Assembly (NCBI RefSeq): GCF_018336915.1 | Contig: NZ_CP064923.1 | Coordinates: 5,380,924 to 5,404,923 of the forward strand | Length of the DNA: 24,000 bases | Reading direction: 5' to 3' | Origin: Acaryochloris marina S15 | GTDB taxonomy: Bacteria; Cyanobacteriota; Cyanobacteriia; Thermosynechococcales; Thermosynechococcaceae | Shown: positions 2,994 to 10,009 of the stretch, one piece after another | How the letters are laid out: every line of letters starts with the position of its first letter | How positions within the stretch are numbered: position 1 is the stretch's first letter | The notes under the pieces: model-generated | Databases searched by the model: none | What the model was told of the DNA's origin: nothing | Seen by the model: only the letters and a program-made list of their open reading frames with translations | Position numbers and translations under genes: made by a program

Positions 2994-3004
2994 GGTTCTA
3001 TTAG
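2994..3004. repeat. target-site duplication, left copy (GGTTCTATTAG) of the ISAs1-family IS
   Basis: GTTCTATTAG at 2995-3004 is repeated exactly at 4335-4344. The match is 11 bp if the ambiguous G at 4334 is counted. Confidence 0.85.
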
Positions 3005-4334
3005 CAGGGTAAGCGCAAGAAAATCAAGCCTCTGAAAGGCTAGACTGTAAAGGAATAGAAGCGCCTAGAACTTTGAGCATATACGCTTCATCCATGCTCG
3101 CCCGTTTTAGTTTTTGACGGGTACTTTTCTTAAAGGACGTTTCTTGATTGAGAAGGTTGATGCTCCAGCGCCTCAGGATGGCCATGTTTTCCGGTGCATG
3201 TCCTGTGCGAATGCGGCTAGCATCTTCGCCAAAGGTCACATCTAAGACCCAGTGGAGTTGGTTCTCAATCGACCAATGCTGGCGGATGGCTTTGCCCAAC
3301 TGCTGAGCATTTGGCGGTAGAGAGCTGATATAAAACATCACCTCATAGGTGGTTTTGTTCCACAAGTGGCGGGTCCGAGCGACCTTGACGATGGTTTGCA
3401 AGCCCTTCCACTGCGCCTGCTTGTAGAGAGGACCCATCTGTTGAAGGGACACGGCCCAAACTTGTCGTTTCTCGCGACGATGGTGCCCTGCTTCCACCCG
3501 GGCATCATAGCTGTGCTCAATGCCCTTAAACTCATTCGCTTCAGCCGTTTCAAACCATTGCTCAACCTGCTCAAACAGCGTGGGATGATTCTCCTTGAGG
3601 GCCAGCACATAGTCAGCCTCTTTAGCTTGAATGTGGCGGGCAATCTCGTGCTGAGTTCCCATTGCATCAATGGTAATAATGCACCCGGCAATGTCTAATA
3701 GCTCTAGCAGTGCTGGAATAGCGGTAATTTCGTTACTCTTGTCTGCAACTTTGACCTGTCCTAGAAATAACCGATACTCACTGGCCCAAGCACTGACCAG
3801 ATGCAATGCGGATTGGTCTTGATTGCGATCATAGGAACCTCTGAGTTGTTTGCCGTCAATCGGTATCACTTGAGCGCCGAGGGTTGTCACTACCTGATCC
3901 AACCAGTGATTGAAACTCCGCTCAAAAGCGGAGGGGCAAATACGCTCAAACACTCGTCGATAGGTGTCTGCTGTCGGTATCCCGGACGGTAGCCTCAGAA
4001 AACTCGACAACCAATCTTGATGGCTTAGACCATAGGTTTCAATGTCTTCCCACCCTTGTGCGCCACCTAAACTTGCCAATAGTCCAATCACGACGATGCT
4101 GACAAACGGATGCTGGACACCTTGGCCTCCACGTGGATCAGGCAAATCTTCAAAACACTCGGACAATTGTTGATAAGCCTGATCGCAATCACTGGCAGGC
4201 AGGAGTGACGAGGATGAGTCAGTGGAAGCTGGTGAGGAAGGAGGCTTGCTGAATCCTGTAGCCATGGGGAAACCCTTTTAACAGAATGGAGTTCCAAAGC
4301 ATATTACAGCTTCATTTTTCTTGCGCTGCCCCTG
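3005..4334 (-). mobile_element. complete ISAs1-family insertion sequence (~1330 bp)
   Basis: Left end CAGGGTAAGCGCAAGAAAAT (3005-3024). The reverse complement of the right end (4314-4334) is CAGGGGCAGCGCAAGAAAAAT, giving 17 matches over the first 19 positions. It carries a single intact transposase ORF and is flanked by a 10-11 bp direct repeat. Confidence 0.9.
3024..4265 (-). CDS. ISAs1-family (H-repeat-associated) DDE transposase, 413 aa, intact
   Basis: Motifs LPDPRGGQGVQHPFVSIVVIGLLASLGG, IPIDGKQLRGSYD, KSNEITAIPALLELLDIAGCIITIDAMGTQHEIA, RQHWSIENQLHWVLDVTFGEDASRIR. Confidence 0.95.
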   Translation of the reverse strand: MATGFSKPPSSPASTDSSSSLLPASDCDQAYQQLSECFEDLPDPRGGQGVQHPFVSIVVIGLLASLGGAQGWEDIETYGLSHQDWLSSFLRLPSGIPTADTYRRVFERICPSAFERSFNHWLDQVVTTLGAQVIPIDGKQLRGSYDRNQDQSALHLVSAWASEYRLFLGQVKVADKSNEITAIPALLELLDIAGCIITIDAMGTQHEIARHIQAKEADYVLALKENHPTLFEQVEQWFETAEANEFKGIEHSYDARVEAGHHRREKRQVWAVSLQQMGPLYKQAQWKGLQTIVKVARTRHLWNKTTYEVMFYISSLPPNAQQLGKAIRQHWSIENQLHWVLDVTFGEDASRIRTGHAPENMAILRRWSINLLNQETSFKKSTRQKLKRASMDEAYMLKVLGASIPLQSSLSEA

Positions 4335-4344
4335 GTTCTATTAG
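4334..4344. repeat. target-site duplication, right copy of the ISAs1-family IS
   Basis: Exact repeat of 2994-3004 lying directly outside the right inverted repeat. Confidence 0.85.
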
Positions 4345-4385
4345 ACCTGCGGAACACTTTGTTTTAGATTGCCAGTGAGGTGACT

Positions 4386-4407
4386 GTTACGTCTTTAGAG
4401 ACGTTAC
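4386..4407 (+). other. imperfect hairpin 14 bp upstream of the Y1 transposase start (possible IS200/IS605-type or REP-like subterminal structure)
   Basis: GTTACGTCT-TTAG-AGACGTTAC: a 6-bp perfect core (ACGTCT/AGACGT) extended by two more pairs across one T-T mismatch. Confidence 0.3.
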
Positions 4408-4420
4408 TTAGAGATGCTCC

Positions 4421-5200
4421 ATGCCACGTCATCCGCGAACGCTGAAACCTAGCTATTGCTATCACATCACCACCCGCTGTAATAATCGTGACTTTCGGTT
4501 AGTGCGGGAAGAATGTCGGGATGTTTTGCTCTATGCCATTCATAAATGCCAGGTCAAATATGGTTTTAAGCTGTATGCCCTCTGCATTATGAGCAACCAT
4601 GTCCATTACCTGTTGGAACCTGCCCAGCCCCAGGACCTGCCCAAAATCATGCACTGGCTGAACTGGTATACGGCCATGTGTTTTAACCGGATGCTCAATC
4701 GCAGTGGGCACTTCTGGGAAAAGCGCTATCACAGCACGGGGTTTCCGAATACGGATAAGCGACGGGCGTTGAATACGCTGCGGTATATCCATGCCAACCC
4801 GAAAGCGGCGAAGATGCAGCAGGGCTTTTTCTATGATTACAGCAACTATGGCAGCTATGAGCGGCTAACCAATGACGGAATTAGCCAATGGCATCCAGCT
4901 TTTCTGGCGTTGGGAGCGACAATTGAAATTTGTGCTCGGGCTTATCGGCGCTTTTGCCAGCGGTACAAGCCCAAGCCCAAACCACCCAAGCGCATTTATT
5001 GGGGCACGAACCTATTGGCGAAGTTGAGGTTAAAGCGGAAAGTCCATAAACCATCCCCTGGACAAACTCGGTTGCCTTGGGATGATTGGGATGGGGTAGA
5101 CCCAGAGATTCAGGCAGTGGCGATGAAGTTTGTGTTGGCAAATTGCTTAAACCCGGAGGTGGTGAAGACTCGATATGAGCCTGATTTTATACAGTTATAG
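4421..5200 (+). CDS. HUH-Y1 tyrosine transposase, IS200-like / REP-associated (RayT-like), 259 aa
   Basis: YHITTRCNNRDF, the HUH motif SNHVHYLL (His60-Val-His62, nt 4598-4606), GHFWEKRYHS, and the catalytic Tyr region LRYIHANP. At 259 aa it is longer than classical IS200 TnpA and fits the COG1943/RayT-like group better. Confidence 0.8.
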   Translation: MPRHPRTLKPSYCYHITTRCNNRDFRLVREECRDVLLYAIHKCQVKYGFKLYALCIMSNHVHYLLEPAQPQDLPKIMHWLNWYTAMCFNRMLNRSGHFWEKRYHSTGFPNTDKRRALNTLRYIHANPKAAKMQQGFFYDYSNYGSYERLTNDGISQWHPAFLALGATIEICARAYRRFCQRYKPKPKPPKRIYWGTNLLAKLRLKRKVHKPSPGQTRLPWDDWDGVDPEIQAVAMKFVLANCLNPEVVKTRYEPDFIQL

Positions 5201-5316: not shown

Positions 5317-7581
5317 CTACAAGTCTTTGCGCGAGAGAAGAGATTGCGCGAGAGAAGAGAGAATACCCAACGGTAATTCTCCCTCAAATCCAAACGGTAA
5401 TTCTCCGTCAAGAGAATTTTCGAGATCGTATGTTGGATTTTGCCACTTGCCATTGTTTGTCCAGCCGATGCGATCGCAGAACGTTCTTGTAAACTCATTG
5501 TAATCTGTCGGGCTTCCGCACTCTTCCCAAATCCGTTTTTGAACACTAAAGCCCCACTTGCCATCGCTGTACTTAACCCACAGACGATCCAGCATTTGCA
5601 AATCGTCGCAGGGAAAAGTCTTTAGGTCATCGCTATTCAAATATTGCCCTTCTTCTTTCCCCACGGTGGTAATCATCAACCGATAGGTCTCCTGGTCGGC
5701 TTCACGCCATTGTTGGGTTTGTAGAAGCGTCTCTAGGTTGGCATATCGAGACGTTTCAACTTGGGAGGTAGTTTTTTCAAATGCAGCCAATTCCTCTGCA
5801 GTTAAGTCCAGCCGTTTGGTAGTGTCTTGCTGGATGGTATAGGCCAAATCAATGGCCTCTTGGCGCAAAGCTTCCCGAATCAATGGCGTAGGGTTGACCT
5901 GGGAGGCATAGAGCAAAATCGTCTGTTTCCACCAATCATTCTGGAGATGTTTATAAAGCAACGCTTCTTGCTTATCATCAGCAATCTGAGTGGCAGCCAA
6001 ATACTCTTGCAAACTGAGATGAGCGAACTCAAATTCACCCAATTCCCGCTCTACCAGCAATTCGCTAATTTGCACCACTTCTGCCAAGAAATTCTTTTGT
6101 TCAACTTGTTCCTGTTGCAGTTTTATATATTTCTTGATTCGTTCCTCTAGGTCAGAGTGACCCAACCGCTCCTCATGGGCTTCCATCATGGATAACGCCA
6201 ACCGTTGCAAGATAAGCTGGGCTTCACAATCGATTAAACAAGTCTTCAGCTTTCGTGCCCTTGGCCGGTCTCGAAGCTGTAACGTACAAATCTCTCGATA
6301 TAGTTCAACCCTGCGTTTAGGTAACTCTGCGCCGGGATATCGCCAATGGAACGACACAATCATATTCAGCAAGAGTGGATTTCTGGCTAAATCCTTCAGC
6401 TCTTGCCGCGCTTCAATTTGGGTTAGCAGTTCCTCAGCGGCAGTTTTTGCAGCATGCTCAACGTCGGGAGTCAACTCTCCCCCACTGGCATATTGCTCTT
6501 GGTACAAATACCAATTCTCTACAAAATTTCGGCGTTGGGATTCGCTAAAGTCTTGCACCCAAAGGATAGGAAGTTCCAATCGGTCGACTAGCTCCTGATC
6601 TTTATAGGCTTTAGGACGTGAAGTGACTATAAATACTGATTTGCTGTAATGGCGCATCTGATCATTAATCCATCGAGCCACCACCGGACGTTGCCCAGAG
6701 GCCACCTCATCGAAGCCATCCAGCATTACCACTGCTTCACCTTGATTAAGCTTCTTTTTAACCCAATCTTTTGGTAAATCAGCTAACTTATCAAAATCCG
6801 GCAAATCTGGAATATGGTGATTTCTAATCAACTCCGGTAAAGTCGGTGGTTGCTCTTGAGCCAATAGGTCTCGATGTTTACGCAGCACCAGCAAAAAAGG
6901 GACTCGTCTGGGTACACCGTATTTACCTTGTTGGTTCATGCCATAGGTATAGGCAATATGCTTTAGCAGCGTCGTTTTGCCATAACCACCCCAAGCCAGT
7001 ACCCCAATTTGGCTGTGGGTCATGAAGTTTGAGTCTTTCCAGGTCTTACTCAGAAAATCCCAAATTTCACTCTCCTGCATCTCATTAAAGGAAAGCTTTG
7101 TAGGATGTTGCATAGGAGACTCTCTCAAACCCGACGGTAAGGAGTTCCGGTCCAATTGCAAAGGAACATAAATCTCCTCCAGTAGAGGCCGGAAAATGCC
7201 ATCGTGTTGAATCACCCCTTCAGATTTCTGGCGACGGCAAGCCCAAGCTTGACATCGAAAATACTGTTCTTCTACGCCACTAACTTTAGCAATGCCATGA
7301 TCAATCGCTTTATTGGCTGCTTCTCCTGCTTTTGTTAGGCGATCTTGAGTACCTTTATGAACCGGGTTTAGCAAACTGGCTCCATAGGAAATCCCCAAAC
7401 CAATCACCCCAGATGCCAAGGCTTTGGGGATATCACTATCATTGAACAGAGACCAAAACGCACCTGCTCCACCTACCGTCACCCCGCCTGTCCGTACTGC
7501 TTTAACAACAACATCTGCAATCTGGTCACTGAGAGAAACCTTAGCTTTAGGTTTTGGAGTAGGTTTATCAGTCTTGGTCAT
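5317..7581 (-). CDS. NACHT-family STAND NTPase with Gly-zipper-like hydrophobic N-terminus and C-terminal GUN4 domain (754 aa)
   Basis: Walker A VLAWGGYGKTTLL (nt ~6970-6993) and Walker B AVVMLDGFDEV (nt ~6705-6733), followed by IVTSRP and a helical/winged-helix region. The C-terminus READQETYRLM...LKTFPCDDLQMLDRLWVKYSDGKWGFSVQKRIW...FCDRIGW matches the GUN4 signature (nt ~5376-5760). The N-terminus carries GGVTVGGAGAFWSLF and ALASGVIGLGISYGASLL (nt ~7356-7521). Confidence 0.85.
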   Translation of the reverse strand: MTKTDKPTPKPKAKVSLSDQIADVVVKAVRTGGVTVGGAGAFWSLFNDSDIPKALASGVIGLGISYGASLLNPVHKGTQDRLTKAGEAANKAIDHGIAKVSGVEEQYFRCQAWACRRQKSEGVIQHDGIFRPLLEEIYVPLQLDRNSLPSGLRESPMQHPTKLSFNEMQESEIWDFLSKTWKDSNFMTHSQIGVLAWGGYGKTTLLKHIAYTYGMNQQGKYGVPRRVPFLLVLRKHRDLLAQEQPPTLPELIRNHHIPDLPDFDKLADLPKDWVKKKLNQGEAVVMLDGFDEVASGQRPVVARWINDQMRHYSKSVFIVTSRPKAYKDQELVDRLELPILWVQDFSESQRRNFVENWYLYQEQYASGGELTPDVEHAAKTAAEELLTQIEARQELKDLARNPLLLNMIVSFHWRYPGAELPKRRVELYREICTLQLRDRPRARKLKTCLIDCEAQLILQRLALSMMEAHEERLGHSDLEERIKKYIKLQQEQVEQKNFLAEVVQISELLVERELGEFEFAHLSLQEYLAATQIADDKQEALLYKHLQNDWWKQTILLYASQVNPTPLIREALRQEAIDLAYTIQQDTTKRLDLTAEELAAFEKTTSQVETSRYANLETLLQTQQWREADQETYRLMITTVGKEEGQYLNSDDLKTFPCDDLQMLDRLWVKYSDGKWGFSVQKRIWEECGSPTDYNEFTRTFCDRIGWTNNGKWQNPTYDLENSLDGELPFGFEGELPLGILSSLAQSLLSRKDL

Positions 7582-7720
7582 AGCTCTAGAAATATGGCAC
7601 TGCTTTTAATACAAGACAAAACTTTTTCAGCTAGCTAGGGGTATGTTTTTTAGGAGAGCACGACTCCTCACAATTAGATCCGATGTTTTTCTAGTCAACA
7701 GTCTCAATTATGCTGCATTT

Positions 7721-7795
7721 GCCCCCTAAATCCCCCATTCTGGGGGACTTTGATTGTCGATCAATGCTTTGCTCACTCGCATGTCTGATTTTGCC
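7721..7795 (-). pseudogene. orphan copy of the last ~25 codons of a DUF559 gene plus the 33-bp motif
   Basis: 7721-7791 aligns with 7812-7882 at a 91-bp offset with only a few mismatches. Reverse translation gives ...ASEQSIDRQSKSPRMGDLGG, matching the C-terminus of the intact DUF559 ORF. No upstream coding part is present. Confidence 0.6.
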
Positions 7796-7807
7796 AACAT
7801 CTTCTGT

Positions 7808-8316
7808 ATTAGCCCCCTAAATCCCCCATTTTGGGGGACTTTGATTGTCGATCAATGCTTTGCTCACTCGCATATCGGATTTGCTGAAGTACATGATCTA
7901 GGTGGTGCATGACGTCTGAGTTATGGAATCGGATCACTCGGTAACCTAGCTGGTTGAGCTGCTCGGTACGGGCTTGATCATACTCCACCTGCTGATTGTG
8001 GATGTCGCCGTCTAGCTCAATCACTAACCGGCATTGGGGACAGTAAAAATCGACAATGAACGAACTAATGGCGTGTTGACAGCGGAATTTCAGGCCGCTG
8101 AGTTGACGTTTTTGCAGTGCTTTCCACAGCTTTTGTTCGGCTGGTGTCAGATTGAGTCTTAGTCGTCGTGCGGCGGCAACGACTGCTGGAGTCGTGCCGC
8201 GAATGCGGTGGTGTTGCGTTGGCTTCTCTCGCATCTTGTTACCCCCAACCCTGTCTCCCATCTAGGATCATCATAAATCTCAAAGTCCCCCAAAATGGGG
8301 GATTTAGGGGGCAAAT
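7808..8316 (-). mobile_element. candidate 509-bp cassette: DUF559 endonuclease gene bounded by 33-37 bp terminal inverted repeats
   Basis: 7812-7844 (GCCCCCTAAATCCCCCATTTTGGGGGACTTTGA) is the exact reverse complement of 8280-8312. Pairing extends to 7808-7844 / 8280-8316 with one mismatch. I could find no target-site duplication, so mobility is only an inference. Confidence 0.35.
7809..8261 (-). CDS. DUF559 / Vsr-like (PD-(D/E)xK fold) endonuclease-domain protein
   Basis: RRLRLNLTPAEQKLWKALQKRQLSGLKFRCQHAISSFIVDFYCPQCRLVIELDGDIHNQQVEYDQARTEQLNQLGYRVIRFHNSDV is the canonical DUF559 pattern. An alternative ATG lies at 8234 (MREKPTQ...). The last 11 codons are encoded by the left inverted-repeat arm. 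Confidence 0.9.
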   Translation of the reverse strand: MGDRVGGNKMREKPTQHHRIRGTTPAVVAAARRLRLNLTPAEQKLWKALQKRQLSGLKFRCQHAISSFIVDFYCPQCRLVIELDGDIHNQQVEYDQARTEQLNQLGYRVIRFHNSDVMHHLDHVLQQIRYASEQSIDRQSKSPKMGDLGG

Positions 8317-8800
8317 TCAGGGTTTAACTAGGCTTCCAAACCAACTTCTCAACCCAGCTCATGATGACGGCAGAGAGTGATAGCTTCAATTGTTGTCCTG
8401 TAACTGAGGGCGCTGCTTTATTGTGTTCTAGCCATCTCCTGAAGGTCTCCCATCGAGGATAATCATAAATCTCAAAGTCCCCCAAAATGGGGGATTTAGG
8501 GGGCAAATTCAGGGTTTAACTAGGCTTTCAAAACAACTTCTCAACCCAGCTCATGATGACGGCAGAGAGTGATAGCTTCAATTGTTGTCCTGTAACTGAG
8601 GGCACTGCCTTATTGTGTTCTAGCCATCTCCTGAAGGTCTCCCATCTAGGATCATCATAAATCTCAAAGTCCCCCAAAATGGGGGATTTAGGGGGCAAAT
8701 GCAGGGTTTAACTAGGCTTTCAAAACAACTTCTCAACCCAGCTCATGATGACGGCAGAGAGTGATGGCTTCAATTTTTATCCTATAACTGAGGGCACTGC
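8253..8800. repeat. tandem array, 192-bp unit x ~2.85 copies, each unit carrying the 33-bp C5/G5 motif
   Basis: Units are 8253-8444, 8445-8636 and 8637-8800 (truncated). The anchor GTCTCCCAT occurs at 8253, 8445 and 8637. Motif copies sit at 8280-8312, 8472-8504 and 8664-8696. Units differ at only a handful of positions. The array ends exactly at the stop codon of the downstream gene (8801). Confidence 0.95.
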
Positions 8801-10009
8801 TCAATCGTATTGAACAACCAATTCCAACCCCTTCGCCCCCCTCAACCGAAACGCATTCAACACAATCGGATCCTTTAACTCCAAATCTGCAGTCGGATCA
8901 TAATCCTCAAAATAAGCCGCAGCAGGCGCATCCCCATCTAAAAACTGAATCACCGCATCTTCCCCAAACCTTTGCTTCGCCACCGTCAAACAATCCTTCA
9001 TCAACAAAGACGGCGTAATCATAGAGCCCACATACGCCTTCGTTTCCTCATCAAACACCCGAATCCCCCGCGCCACCGACTGGGTTTCATGCAGCAAAAA
9101 CGGACCACCCCGCTTATACTCCCCCCGCTCCAACACCGCCTCAATATCCTTCGGCTGGCGAATCACCCCATGGGTATCAATCGTGACCATCGCCACATCT
9201 GGTTGGGCCTCCAGCTGCTCTAGCTCCTTGCGAATTTGCCCCTTAATATCATCCAGTCGCTCATTACTGGTCTTCCCCTCCCCTTCCAGATCACTGAAAT
9301 CCAGATAAGCCGACCGCCCATCGGCATAGGTCACCAACCCCGACAACAGAATATTGGGGGCAGATTGCCCAGAAATCTTGGAAGAACGATAAACAGGCAA
9401 ATCCGTTTTACCCGCATTCTTCGGCAATCGATTGGGATTGAAATAGGCATAGCTAAGGGGAATCGATTCCTTCTTTTTGGTAAAGCCCTTGAACGTCGTG
9501 CCAAAAATCCCCAGCACCTTGCCCCCCGTGCTCTCCACCTCCGCTTTAACCGTCTTATAGCTGTGATCGGGCAATAGGGGCAAAATCACCGTGCCCGGTT
9601 TAGGCTCAAACACAATCGCCGGACCCTGGCCATACCAATTCAGCGGCGTATCCGTTAGCACCGACTTGCCTTCTATATTGGTGCGACCGGGCACGGGATA
9701 GGTTACATATTCTCGACCGTTATTATCAAGGGCGAACTGGGGTTTATTGCCGCGATACTGAAGGGGCGCAACGTCAACGGTTTTGATCACCTTCTTCCAG
9801 TCGAAGTCATAGTCATAAAAAGAAAGCTGAAACACCTTGCTCAAGGGCACAGCAGGCTTAGACGCTAAAGACTCATACTCAATAGGCATTGCTTCTAACC
9901 GAAAGGCATCGGGTTCAGAGGCTTGCTTACGCAAGAGGGTGCAATTCACCAATAGTGTTGAACAACCGATCAGCCCGATCAGTTGAATTGATGGAGCAAT
10001 CTTCACCAT
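8801..10009 (-). CDS. hypothetical lipoprotein, 402 aa, family not recognised
   Basis: N-terminus MVKIAPSIQLIGLIGCST has a signal peptide and a lipobox (LIGC). It lies 23 bp downstream of the rhomboid gene on the same strand, so an operon is likely. The ORF is long and uninterrupted, with strong G-ending codon bias. Confidence 0.7.
   Translation of the reverse strand: MVKIAPSIQLIGLIGCSTLLVNCTLLRKQASEPDAFRLEAMPIEYESLASKPAVPLSKVFQLSFYDYDFDWKKVIKTVDVAPLQYRGNKPQFALDNNGREYVTYPVPGRTNIEGKSVLTDTPLNWYGQGPAIVFEPKPGTVILPLLPDHSYKTVKAEVESTGGKVLGIFGTTFKGFTKKKESIPLSYAYFNPNRLPKNAGKTDLPVYRSSKISGQSAPNILLSGLVTYADGRSAYLDFSDLEGEGKTSNERLDDIKGQIRKELEQLEAQPDVAMVTIDTHGVIRQPKDIEAVLERGEYKRGGPFLLHETQSVARGIRVFDEETKAYVGSMITPSLLMKDCLTVAKQRFGEDAVIQFLDGDAPAAAYFEDYDPTADLELKDPIVLNAFRLRGAKGLELVVQYD

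Follow-up and report, generated by a model that had tools for sequence, protein, structure and literature searches.

A DUF559 nuclease gene between inverted palindromic arms inside a probable MITE-type mobile element of Acaryochloris marina

On the minus strand of the window analysed here, a 24-kb (24,000-nt) stretch of the Acaryochloris marina S15 genome, a small DUF559 gene has as its neighbours a NACHT-GUN4 gene and a gene for a 402-aa protein without Pfam match. DUF559 is a very widespread bacterial domain that has no settled function. Both ends of the gene are marked by copies of a palindromic motif, arranged as inverted arms:

7809-8234, minus strand: DUF559 gene (Vsr-fold PD-(D/E)xK endonuclease), 141 aa, Pfam E=7.6e-37
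7804-7844, minus strand: inner arm in plus sense relative to the gene, covering the final codons and the stop codon of DUF559
8280-8320, minus strand: opposing inner arm, inverted; the ATG at 8234 lies 45 nt downstream of it
7722-7746 (minus), 7813-7837 (minus), 8287-8311 (plus), 8479-8503 (plus) and 8671-8695 (plus): the five copies of the 25-nt core CCCCCAAAATGGGGGATTTAGGGGG

An alternative upstream ATG at 8261 would give a longer reading frame (7809-8261, minus strand), of which residues 29-129 match DUF559 in Pfam; relatives start at 8234. In the PDB the protein matches 3HRL (E=4e-21) and, as a distant relative, 3R3P (E=0.005), the latter deposited as ‘Mobile intron protein’ and taken by us to be the homing endonuclease I-Bth0305I. 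D71, E82, D84 and H88 are invariant among 35 relatives, and the gene is under purifying selection (dN/dS 0.07-0.23 in seven copies). A Pfam scan with E up to 0.01 returned DUF559, MTES_1575 and PvuRts1I-like_N, without a match to PF03852 (Vsr); given this, the lack of a linked C5-cytosine methyltransferase and the differing neighbours, we rejected assignment to the Vsr very-short-patch repair enzymes. In Caulobacter, a DUF559 protein causes DNA damage in vivo (PMC12907096), and Vsr-like homing endonucleases have been reported (PMC2677866). DUF559 is mentioned in only 25 open-access papers, of which none treats its genomic setting, and a literature search for the motif strings found no match.

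Positions 7812-7844 and 8280-8312 are perfect reverse complements over 33 nt; the pairing extends to 37 nt if one mismatch is allowed (7808-7844 with 8280-8316) and to 41 nt at 95% identity (7804-7844 with 8280-8320). The first two of these lengths had been given in a preliminary description of the locus, made from the sequence alone, and were confirmed by recomputing the pairing. Its other sequence statements hold as well: the 509-bp arm-bounded unit contains only the DUF559 ORF, the C5 and G5 tracts of the motif allow two mutually exclusive hairpins, the left arm is translated as the protein tail SPKMGDLGG-stop, and the two candidate ATGs are 18 and 45 nt away from the right arm. Likewise, a strand-resolved search recovered the five motif copies within 1 kb, two one way and three the other; all of them lie within the element described below, with no further copy of the 25-nt core in the 24-kb window and no match in 100 shuffles. 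Read inward, the arm hairpin and the T-rich tail that follows it score as a terminator. The arms are explained by no known RNA family, as an Rfam scan of 7400-9000 with E up to 1 gave no match, and a promoter scan of 7500-8900 found none, including outside the arms.

The unit shared between loci reaches ~100 nt past each arm, where it ends in terminal repeats of its own flanked by a target duplication of 8 bp; all of this the preliminary description had omitted. Alignment of copies from four unrelated genomic contexts set the boundaries of this larger element:

7604-8792, minus strand: entire transposable element, 1189 bp, with outer terminal repeats, modules A and B, inner arms, DUF559 and internal tandem duplications
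8793-8800, minus strand: target-site duplication GCAGTGCC, upstream copy, immediately after the stop codon of the 402-aa gene
7596-7603, minus strand: target-site duplication GCAGTGCC, downstream copy, 8/8 identical to 8793-8800
8777-8792, minus strand: outer terminal repeat, A end (CTCAGTTATAGGATAA...), which every context preserves in the same register; internal duplicates at 8585-8600 and 8393-8408
7604-7621, minus strand: outer terminal repeat, B end (...TTTTGTCTTGTATTAAAA)
7604-7712, minus strand: module B, non-coding, which joins the distal arm to the B end
7713-7882, minus strand: 91-bp tandem duplication (x1.9) of the gene 3′ end and arm; distal arm copy at 7713-7753
8253-8801, minus strand: 192-bp tandem array (x2.9), whose unit consists of 28 nt that were once host flank, the 8-mer, the A end, module A, the arm and ~35 nt; additional arms at 8472-8512 and 8664-8704, internal 8-mers at 8601-8608 and 8409-8416

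Stripped of its duplications, this element is ~715 bp long (707-718 bp in copies without them) and has been copied whole to at least four unrelated Acaryochloris sites. Its A end (CTCAGTTACAGGACAA) and B end (...TTTTGTCCTGTACTAAA) form an imperfect inverted repeat with the core TACAGGACAA, which is weak in Acaryochloris (about 13/21 positions). The flanking octamers lie in register with these conserved ends and match at 8/8 positions in the window and at loci L121 and L207, at 7/8 in L123 and L208, and at 5/8 in L125. One empty site was found in all: in L208, a diverged strain with 77-82% identity, a single related octamer (GTGGTGCC) occupies the position. For a second context, sought via a neighbouring 442-aa protein, homology ends 213 nt short of the element and gave no clean empty site. 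DUF559 is the sole supported ORF inside the element, which holds no recognisable transposase.

These comparisons partly support what had been proposed for the locus. The gene and its inverted arms do belong to a mobile unit, with paralogues bearing identical-type arms at unrelated loci, and both filled and empty sites exist among strains. The 509-bp arm-bounded segment is not that unit, however, because in Acaryochloris ~715 bp moved (1189 bp here), with its own outer ends and 8-bp duplications. Nor are there target duplications at the arms themselves, either immediately outside the arms of 14 non-cyanobacterial loci or in L216 and L217. Of the suggested ‘minimal mobile or homing unit’, the mobile half is supported and classical homing is not: the gene is intergenic rather than inside an intron or intein, and the inserted unit in Acaryochloris has terminal repeats and 8-bp duplications.

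Parts of the element also amplify in tandem. Here it has grown from ~715 bp to 1189 bp through two tandem duplications (192 bp x3 and 91 bp x2), which the preliminary description passed over and to which the five motif copies belong. The 28 nt of flank in the 192-bp unit are host-derived, since they are seen at the L208 empty site. This unit occurs once in MBIC11017, twice in ‘Moss Beach’ and CCMEE 5410 and three times here; comparable 3′ duplications are found in L128 (~121 bp, 3 copies) and L217.

Selection maintains both the gene and its arms while the outer modules drift. Between copies, the coding sequence is 89-93% identical, the arms mostly 91-100% and the modules 62-86%, with module B at 69-86% between unrelated loci, i.e. 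at about the neutral rate. Across genera, too, the arms are nearly unchanged and the outer modules drift: in Acaryochloris, L126 and L210 the arms differ by 0-3 mismatches per 33 nt and yet adjoin DUF559 genes whose proteins share only 61-76% identity, whereas among 108 partner arms of gene-less MITEs only 18% are as intact as this. Divergence among the Acaryochloris copies is uniform and old (dS 0.17-0.37), which fits rare transposition of the whole element; neither homing nor gene conversion has left a recent trace in it. No gene-less copy was found in ~130 kb of Acaryochloris DNA.

With the outer ends as reference, the arm-bounded gene segment occurs in both orientations. In L207 and L208, modules A and B are swapped and reverse-complemented, with breakpoints within the arms, so that the gene segment is inverted in two of four contexts. 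Taken with the 14-fold enrichment of ‘DUF559 domain-containing protein’ among predicted inversion targets (PMC9881135), this might suggest a programmed switch in which the arms serve as recombination sites that flip the gene and turn DUF559 on or off by phase variation. Such a switch is very improbable, as the two orientations are fixed differences between old paralogous copies rather than variants of one locus, the insertion at context (a) has a single orientation in all five strains that share it, no invertase or recombinase gene lies nearby and no promoter was detected outside the arms. A rare flip is explained by homologous recombination between the 41-bp inverted repeats.

In other cyanobacteria, DUF559 occupies the centre of rare copies of an otherwise gene-less MITE family. 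The motif is the central palindrome of this abundant family of 125-195-bp elements, which have 9-11-bp target duplications, many of them perfect, and which fold into a long hairpin (dG -43 kcal/mol, z -8). Of 17 terminal-repeat pairs with the ends CTACCGTGTACACACAAGTC, 15 are spaced 123-193 nt apart; the terminal repeats of L126 and of 15 gene-less copies are 19-20 nt long and perfect or near-perfect. In L126 and L210, DUF559 has been placed between the arms of such a MITE, and gene-bearing and gene-less copies have their terminal repeats and target duplications in common. The arm-gene-arm module is conserved in these two loci and in L216 and L217, where outer terminal repeats were looked for and none found. 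In P. priestleyi, which has at least 15 motif blocks, the DUF559 gene is flanked by inverted copies of the strain's own abundant repeat. A plasmid search with the whole unit matched only the DUF559 coding part, in Picosynechococcus, where the copy sits amid a thicket of related hairpins instead of a simple inverted pair.

Among the matches listed, 119 of 120 motif-bearing 8-kb blocks lack DUF559. The abundance of the motif in several genera could thus be read as coincidence, a generic repeat having piled up on both sides of an intergenic gene. This is scarcely credible and already contradicted: the arms lie at equal distances from the gene in both A. marina paralogues, in two copies in IP29b_bin.148 and in L126, L210, L216 and L217, the window has no other motif copy, and such flanks never occur at other genes in the same contigs. 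Closer to the mark for these other genera is the earlier suggestion of a gene captured between dispersed palindromic repeats, in so far as an abundant MITE that mostly lacks the gene has the motif at its core.

Beyond the cyanobacteria, unrelated bacteria also have inverted hairpins as flanks of their DUF559 genes specifically. In a survey of metagenome contigs with neighbouring genes as controls, 20 of 39 DUF559 genes reached an inverted-repeat flank score of at least 14, against none of 85 other genes on the same contigs (Fisher p=1e-12). The 14 strongest cases all have an arm upstream of the gene and a second, inverted one at its stop codon or close by, and only 3 further arm copies occur in their 51.6 kb. 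Similarity of arm type is weakly and not significantly related to protein similarity (54% vs 49% identity, p=0.057). Since the layout recurs around DUF559 genes in many bacteria, the gene may be a selfish rider or a driver of repeats.

The same facts can also be read with DUF559 as passive cargo: a gene useful to the host, such as a defence nuclease or a Vsr-type mismatch nuclease partnered by a cytosine methyltransferase encoded elsewhere, that sits in the loop of a MITE, its arms merely bidirectional terminators or insulators and its protein unrelated to the repeats. Purifying selection on the gene, the inward terminator score of the arm hairpin with its T-rich tail, the age and stability of the insertions (five strains at context (a)) and an arm type that barely follows protein similarity all agree with this, as does the functional link of Caulobacter VsrA, a DUF559 protein, to an unlinked methyltransferase (PMC12907096). 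Another point in its favour is the PCC 7002 copy, which lies between DUF499 and DUF1156 genes, presumably a defence-type gene cluster. Cargo status nevertheless leaves unexplained why one family should have constant geometry with different arms in many phyla (the 20/39 vs 0/85 above), why non-palindromic parts of the arms are repeated in inverted form, and why arms are so much better conserved beside the gene than in gene-less MITEs. We regard it as unlikely.

What moves the element was sought nearby and more widely. No transposase with matching terminal repeats was found in 1.5 Mb of loci, in which repeat pairs were only 123-583 nt apart, and a plasmid search with a repeat end plus module returned only short MITE-like matches and no partner insertion sequence. 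Within the window, an ISAs1 element (3005-4334) was rejected as partner because its ends are unrelated, and a RAYT-like gene (4421-5200) because it has no motif flanks and is absent from strains that have the element. Among known classes, IS200/IS605 does not apply to a unit that has terminal repeats and target duplications and no Y1 gene inside, nor does the integron gene cassette, since the gene has an arm at either end and the Pfam scan of window ORFs turned up no integrase.

A further possibility is that DUF559 itself drives the repeats, disseminating them as RAYT does REP and REPIN, with the gene-bearing copy as master and the gene-less MITEs as its non-autonomous offspring. In REPtrons and TIRtrons, inverted REPs or TIRs flank the gene for a tyrosine transposase, RAYT or TIRYT (PMC3733652), and the layout is alike: a small gene, present once or twice per genome, lies between inverted copies of a hairpin repeat of which many more are dispersed elsewhere (P. 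priestleyi has at least 15 blocks). Moreover, the most intact arm copies are those at the gene, copies with and without the gene have the same terminal repeats and target duplications, and GTAG, by which REP families are tagged, is found at the MITE ends (PMC3733652). By its enzyme, however, the element falls outside the REPtron class, as its protein is a PD-(D/E)xK DUF559 nuclease of the Vsr fold and not an HUH/Y1 tyrosine transposase; it also differs in having target duplications and in the gene lying at different loci in different strains. PD-(D/E)xK nucleases of 120-140 aa are not known to have strand-transfer activity, the 8-11-bp target duplications suggest a DDE-type enzyme instead, arm type is not tightly coupled to protein clade, and the ~130 kb of Acaryochloris DNA contain no gene-less offspring. 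We hold dissemination by DUF559 to be improbable.

Our preferred reading, held with a little more belief than doubt, is that 7604-8792 is a MITE-type transposon carrying a putative selfish Vsr-fold nuclease module. The outer element would be moved in trans by a DDE-type transposase, as the target duplications left behind suggest, and the arm-DUF559-arm segment would be a selfish module that lives at the centre of palindromic repeats. Its protein would most likely recognise the C5/G5 arm, or a hairpin or cruciform form of it, and the module could spread or persist through break-induced gene conversion among repeat copies while hitch-hiking on transposition of the MITE. The arms may double as inward-facing terminators that insulate the gene.

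Several known systems share parts of this picture. Mobile insertion cassettes, of which MIC231 of Bacillus cereus is an example, and MITEs in general resemble the element in their short terminal inverted repeats and target duplications (of 8 bp in this element and 9-11 bp across the wider family), the lack of a transposase gene, the many short gene-less copies next to few with a passenger, and the long hairpin fold. Here, in contrast, the passenger is always one nuclease family, placed exactly between the inner palindrome arms, and it is these arms and not the termini that are most conserved. With Vsr-like homing endonucleases such as I-Bth0305I, the protein shares a nuclease superfamily, as the 3R3P match indicates, a free-standing small gene and plausibly selfish behaviour; a hairpin upstream of the ORF was also noted for the ‘fractured gene’ endonucleases (PMC2677866). 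Unlike them, DUF559 here is associated with no intron, intein or split host gene, and it has inverted arms along with, in Acaryochloris, terminal repeats and target duplications. TnpB and IscB of IS200/IS605 (PMC10690162) are likewise transposon-borne nucleases rather than strand-transfer enzymes, and like them DUF559 could help its element to persist or spread if it cut sites that are empty or lack the gene, although its fold is different and no guide RNA was found here (no Rfam match). A further transposon-encoded accessory nuclease is TnsA of Tn7. Finally, Elhai et al. (Genome Res, 2008) reportedly described cyanobacterial dispersed repeats of very small size that lie inside carrier repeats, akin to the short conserved motifs inside larger hairpin-forming repeats seen here; we know of no link between those families and DUF559.

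With more doubt than belief, the argument may be extended to all bacteria: DUF559 with hairpin-bearing inverted arms would then be an unrecognised, bacteria-wide class of minimal selfish elements, in which a nuclease that recognises its own arms or their cruciform colonises, maintains or even propagates REP-like and MITE families. Were this true, it would constitute a PD-(D/E)xK counterpart of the RAYT-REPIN or TnpB-IS605 partnerships and provide a biological role for one of the commonest domains of unknown function.

Tails encoded by the motif, such as SPKMGDLGG and PPKSPILGDF, in many database proteins represent repeat read-through and not features of the proteins. The locus shows that the centre of a palindromic mobile element is constantly occupied by DUF559. 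If our reading holds, it turns an anonymous annotation into the testable hypothesis of a nuclease acting on its own repeat, offers an origin or a partner for an abundant cyanobacterial MITE family, and would explain the prominence of DUF559 in screens for inversion-prone genes.

At 7604-8792 (- strand) the window carries a MITE-type transposable element, with a functional DUF559 gene inside its central palindrome. The preliminary description had regarded this gene and its 33-bp arms (the inner inverted copies of a C5/G5 motif) as a possible 509-bp single-gene selfish cassette. The sequence features given there are confirmed: the inverted repeat is exact across 33 nt (7812-7844 and the reverse complement of 8280-8312), and with two mismatches the pairing extends to 41 nt (7804-7844/8280-8320). 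As had also been noted, one arm encodes the final nine residues of the DUF559 protein, and the motif occurs five times. Its 25-nt core CCCCCAAAATGGGGGATTTAGGGGG lies at 7722, 7813, 8287, 8479 and 8671, with no further copy in the rest of the 24-kb window and no match in any of 100 shuffles. These five copies are not independent, all of them falling within two tandem duplications.

7604-8792, - strand: whole element, 1189 bp (about 715 + 2 x 192 + 91)
7713-7882: 91-bp tandem duplication, takes in the 3′ end of the DUF559 gene
7809-8234/8261, - strand: DUF559 ORF, the sole supported ORF inside the inner arm pair (Pfam E=7.6e-37)
8253-8801: tandem array, 192 bp x 2.9

Three short ORFs (8159-8314, 8324-8506 and 8528-8698, - strand), which start MPPKSPILGDFEIYD... 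and are encoded by the arms and the 192-bp units, match no family and most probably are not genuine genes; comparable motif-encoded peptides form N- or C-terminal extensions on database DUF559 proteins.

The best protein matches are all from Acaryochloris, namely 'Moss Beach' (98% identity) and A. marina (95% and 91%), and comparison of the DNA surrounding seven Acaryochloris copies resolves four unrelated genomic contexts.

Context (a): 402-aa gene / DUF559 / NACHT-GUN4 gene; window, 'Moss Beach', MBIC11017, AP026075, CCMEE 5410
Context (b): AAA_35 gene / DUF559 / ATPase/nSTAND gene; both A. marina genomes
Contexts (c), (d): two other sites; Acaryochloris sp. IP29b_bin.148

The same flanks were thus found at other DUF559 genes, as the preliminary description had proposed to look for: in all four contexts, every Acaryochloris copy has an inverted arm ~45-55 nt before the start ATG and a second arm located at, or shortly after, the stop codon. 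Downstream of the element in the window lies a 754-aa NACHT NTPase-GUN4-like fusion gene (5317-7581, - strand), whose product shows a C-terminal match to the PADLOC candidate defence family PD-T4-6 (E=2.6e-36). STAND-type ATPase genes also adjoin the other copy in A. marina.

Beyond each arm, ~100 nt are homologous among copies from unrelated loci. Alignment of these outer parts delimited two modules, A and B, whose outer ends lie in conserved register (CTCAGTTACAGGACAA... and ...TTTTGTCCTGTACTAAA) and constitute an imperfect inverted repeat with the core TACAGGACAA. Immediately outside these ends, all contexts show an 8-bp direct repeat.

Octamers flanking the element in Acaryochloris loci (left; right; identical positions)
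Window and L121: GCAGTGCC; GCAGTGCC; 8/8
L123: ATGCTCTC; ATACTCTC; 7/8
L207 (IP29b_bin.148): TCTAATCC; TCTAATCC; 8/8
L208 (IP29b_bin.148): TTGAAGTT; GTGAAGTT; 7/8

Context (a) in IP29b_bin.148 is without the element, and its intergenic region (...AACACAATTAGG / GTGGTGCC / ATGCC...) holds a single octamer. Both the empty site and the target duplications envisaged in the preliminary description therefore exist, and terminal inverted repeats combined with target-site duplication are the signature of a transposable element. The notion of a mobile unit comprising DUF559 and its arms thus stands, but not its boundaries: the 33-bp arms form an inner palindrome, the termini lie farther out, and the unit is about 715 bp rather than 509 bp (707-718 bp without internal duplications).

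The 28 nt preceding the octamer in the IP29b_bin.148 empty site are found again wherever two 192-bp units of the window meet, which shows that the array arose when host flank, octamer, A end, module A and arm were duplicated in tandem; strains carry 1, 2 or 3 units. Arm-adjacent tandem amplification, which may arise by slippage or unequal exchange promoted by the arms, recurs independently at four loci.

Window, 8253-8801: 192 bp x 3; 7713-7882: 91 bp x 2
L128, 4280-4650: about 121 bp, 3 copies, gene 3′ end
L210 (P. priestleyi), 4290-4900: three whole MITEs, 185-bp period, 5′ of the gene
L217 (Oculatella), 700-805: 3′ arms, one decayed and one intact

In MBIC11017 (L125, 10416-10577, context a), ~180 extra nt separate the gene end from the intact downstream arm and the DUF559 ORF ends early (…SKSPE), indicating that the 3′ region of the element was remodelled differently per strain.

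Relative to the gene, contexts (c) and (d) show modules A and B exchanged and reverse-complemented, with switch points within the arms, meaning that the gene segment has flipped at least once. A programmed inversion switch, for which such flipping might speak, is nevertheless unlikely, since at any one locus the orientation is fixed (identical in all strains having context (a)) and there is no recombinase gene nearby. The element has thus entered several genomic sites; its central part is able to flip, and segments of it undergo tandem amplification.

Pairwise dN/dS among the seven Acaryochloris DUF559 genes is 0.07-0.23, and 35 relatives all retain the catalytic-type residues D71, E82, D84 and H88. 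Among solved structures, the nearest are 3HRL (E=4e-21) and 3R3P (E=0.005), the latter an intron homing endonuclease domain. Identity among copies is 62-86% for modules A and B, close to the neutral expectation from a dS of 0.17-0.37, versus 89-93% for the coding region and mostly 91-100% for the arms. The element must therefore have been copied in its entirety long ago; what has been retained since is the gene with its arms, not the ends.

An exact-pattern motif scan covering one genome per species yielded at least 120 blocks (each ≤8 kb; 803,871 bases). Among the matches listed, hosts include Phormidesmis, Phormidium tanganyikae, Petrachloros, Leptolyngbya, Pseudanabaenaceae, Oculatella and Thermosynechococcaceae, and DUF559 is encoded in the A. 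marina block alone. In these matches the motif occurs as an inverted doublet, placed centrally in a 123-193-nt MITE with terminal repeats CTACCGTGTACACACAAGTC...GACTTGTGTGTACACGGTAG and target duplications of 9-11 bp, perfect in many copies, which folds into a single long hairpin (dG -43 kcal/mol, z -8). A frequent insertion site is the palindrome CCCTCTCC...GGAGAGGG, whose loop holds MITEs at L002, L013, L028, L088, L107 and L126; CCCTCTCC-N-GGAGAGGG is also the hairpin type around DUF559 in non-cyanobacterial L136, L171, L173, L174, L178 and L189.

Many cyanobacterial DUF559 relatives (57-70% identity) have motif-encoded tails (e.g. SPSMGDLGG) or starts (PPKSPILGDF). On one metagenome contig (L126, 66% identity), the gene lies within perfect arms, with the same MITE terminal repeats and an 11-bp duplication, and in P. 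priestleyi ULC007 it occupies the last in a tandem series of MITEs native to that genome. Arms and gene are likewise present in Leptolyngbya NK1-12 and Oculatella; a search for outer repeats there detected none. DUF559-adjacent arms carry 0-3 mismatches to the 33-nt consensus while their proteins are only 61-76% identical; among the matches listed, only 18% of 108 gene-less MITE partner arms are equally intact. The arm-gene-arm module is thus conserved across genera. On plasmid pAQ6 of the model strain Picosynechococcus sp. PCC 7002, DUF559 lies amid a thicket of related C5/G5 hairpins; there (L209, 19500-21700), a PIN-domain gene is followed by DUF559 between DUF499 and DUF1156 genes, with directly repeated blocks of C4-5/G4-5 hairpins on both sides rather than a simple inverted pair.

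Beyond cyanobacteria, 80 metagenome loci with DUF559 genes 38-66% identical to the query were surveyed. A flank-to-flank inverted match scoring at least 14 (shuffled-control maximum 12) was found at 30 of 56 testable DUF559 genes, and on the same contigs at 20/39 DUF559 versus 0/85 neighbouring genes (Fisher p=1e-12). The 14 strongest cases, spanning 443-749 bp, always pair one upstream arm with an inverted arm on or close to the stop codon, with only three further copies in 51.6 kb and no target duplication flanking the arms. Coincidental proximity of gene and repeats is excluded by this enrichment, by the constant geometry with few extra arm copies, and by the same arm placement at every Acaryochloris copy. 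Arm sequences vary by lineage (e.g. ACCTCACCCC...CCCTCTCC-loop-GGAGAGGG) on a common design of an outer C-run followed by a C-run/loop/G-run hairpin, and arm type tracks protein similarity weakly (p=0.057). In an independent published screen, the predicted inversion targets show a 14-fold enrichment of 'DUF559 domain-containing protein' (PMC9881135).

The window also holds an insertion sequence and a further transposase gene.

2995-4344: complete ISAs1-family insertion sequence
3024-4265, - strand: ISAs1 transposase, 413 aa (NCBIfam transpos_ISAs1 E=1.8e-123)
3005-3023 and 4316-4334: ISAs1 19-nt terminal repeats
2995-3004 and 4335-4344: perfect 10-bp target duplication GTTCTATTAG
4421-5200, + strand: Y1 (IS200-like) transposase gene, 259 aa

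'Moss Beach' is without the ISAs1 element at the corresponding spot, so this insertion is recent and strain-specific. The best match of the Y1 protein is a REP-associated tyrosine transposase model (68 bits versus a cut-off of 80); its gene is shared with 'Moss Beach', is missing at that position in MBIC11017 and CCMEE 5410, and is flanked by a weak 25-nt inverted repeat only, with no C5/G5 motif.

The DUF559 element is neither IS200/IS605 nor an integron cassette nor a canonical Vsr gene. Structurally it corresponds to a MITE or mobile insertion cassette, the partner transposase excepted. Since the duplications span 8-11 bp and the element encodes no transposase, a putative DDE-type enzyme would mobilise the outer element in trans. 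Vsr-like homing endonucleases (PMC2677866) share their fold with DUF559 but differ in genomic setting, and the literature searched yielded no description of DUF559 within inverted repeats or MITEs. We favour a model in which the arm-gene-arm module is selfish: its nuclease would most likely recognise the arm or the extruded arm hairpin, and the module would persist via break-induced copying among repeat copies, riding MITE transposition; its arms also look like inward-facing terminators. Two alternatives cannot yet be separated from this model with the present data. DUF559 could be passive cargo, carried between arms that act as terminators; or it could drive the repeat family as a REPtron does, to which the layout is alike, although the defining Y1 transposase of REPtrons is absent from the element. 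More widely, it is moderately probable that DUF559 is a hallmark gene for a class of palindrome-dwelling selfish modules.
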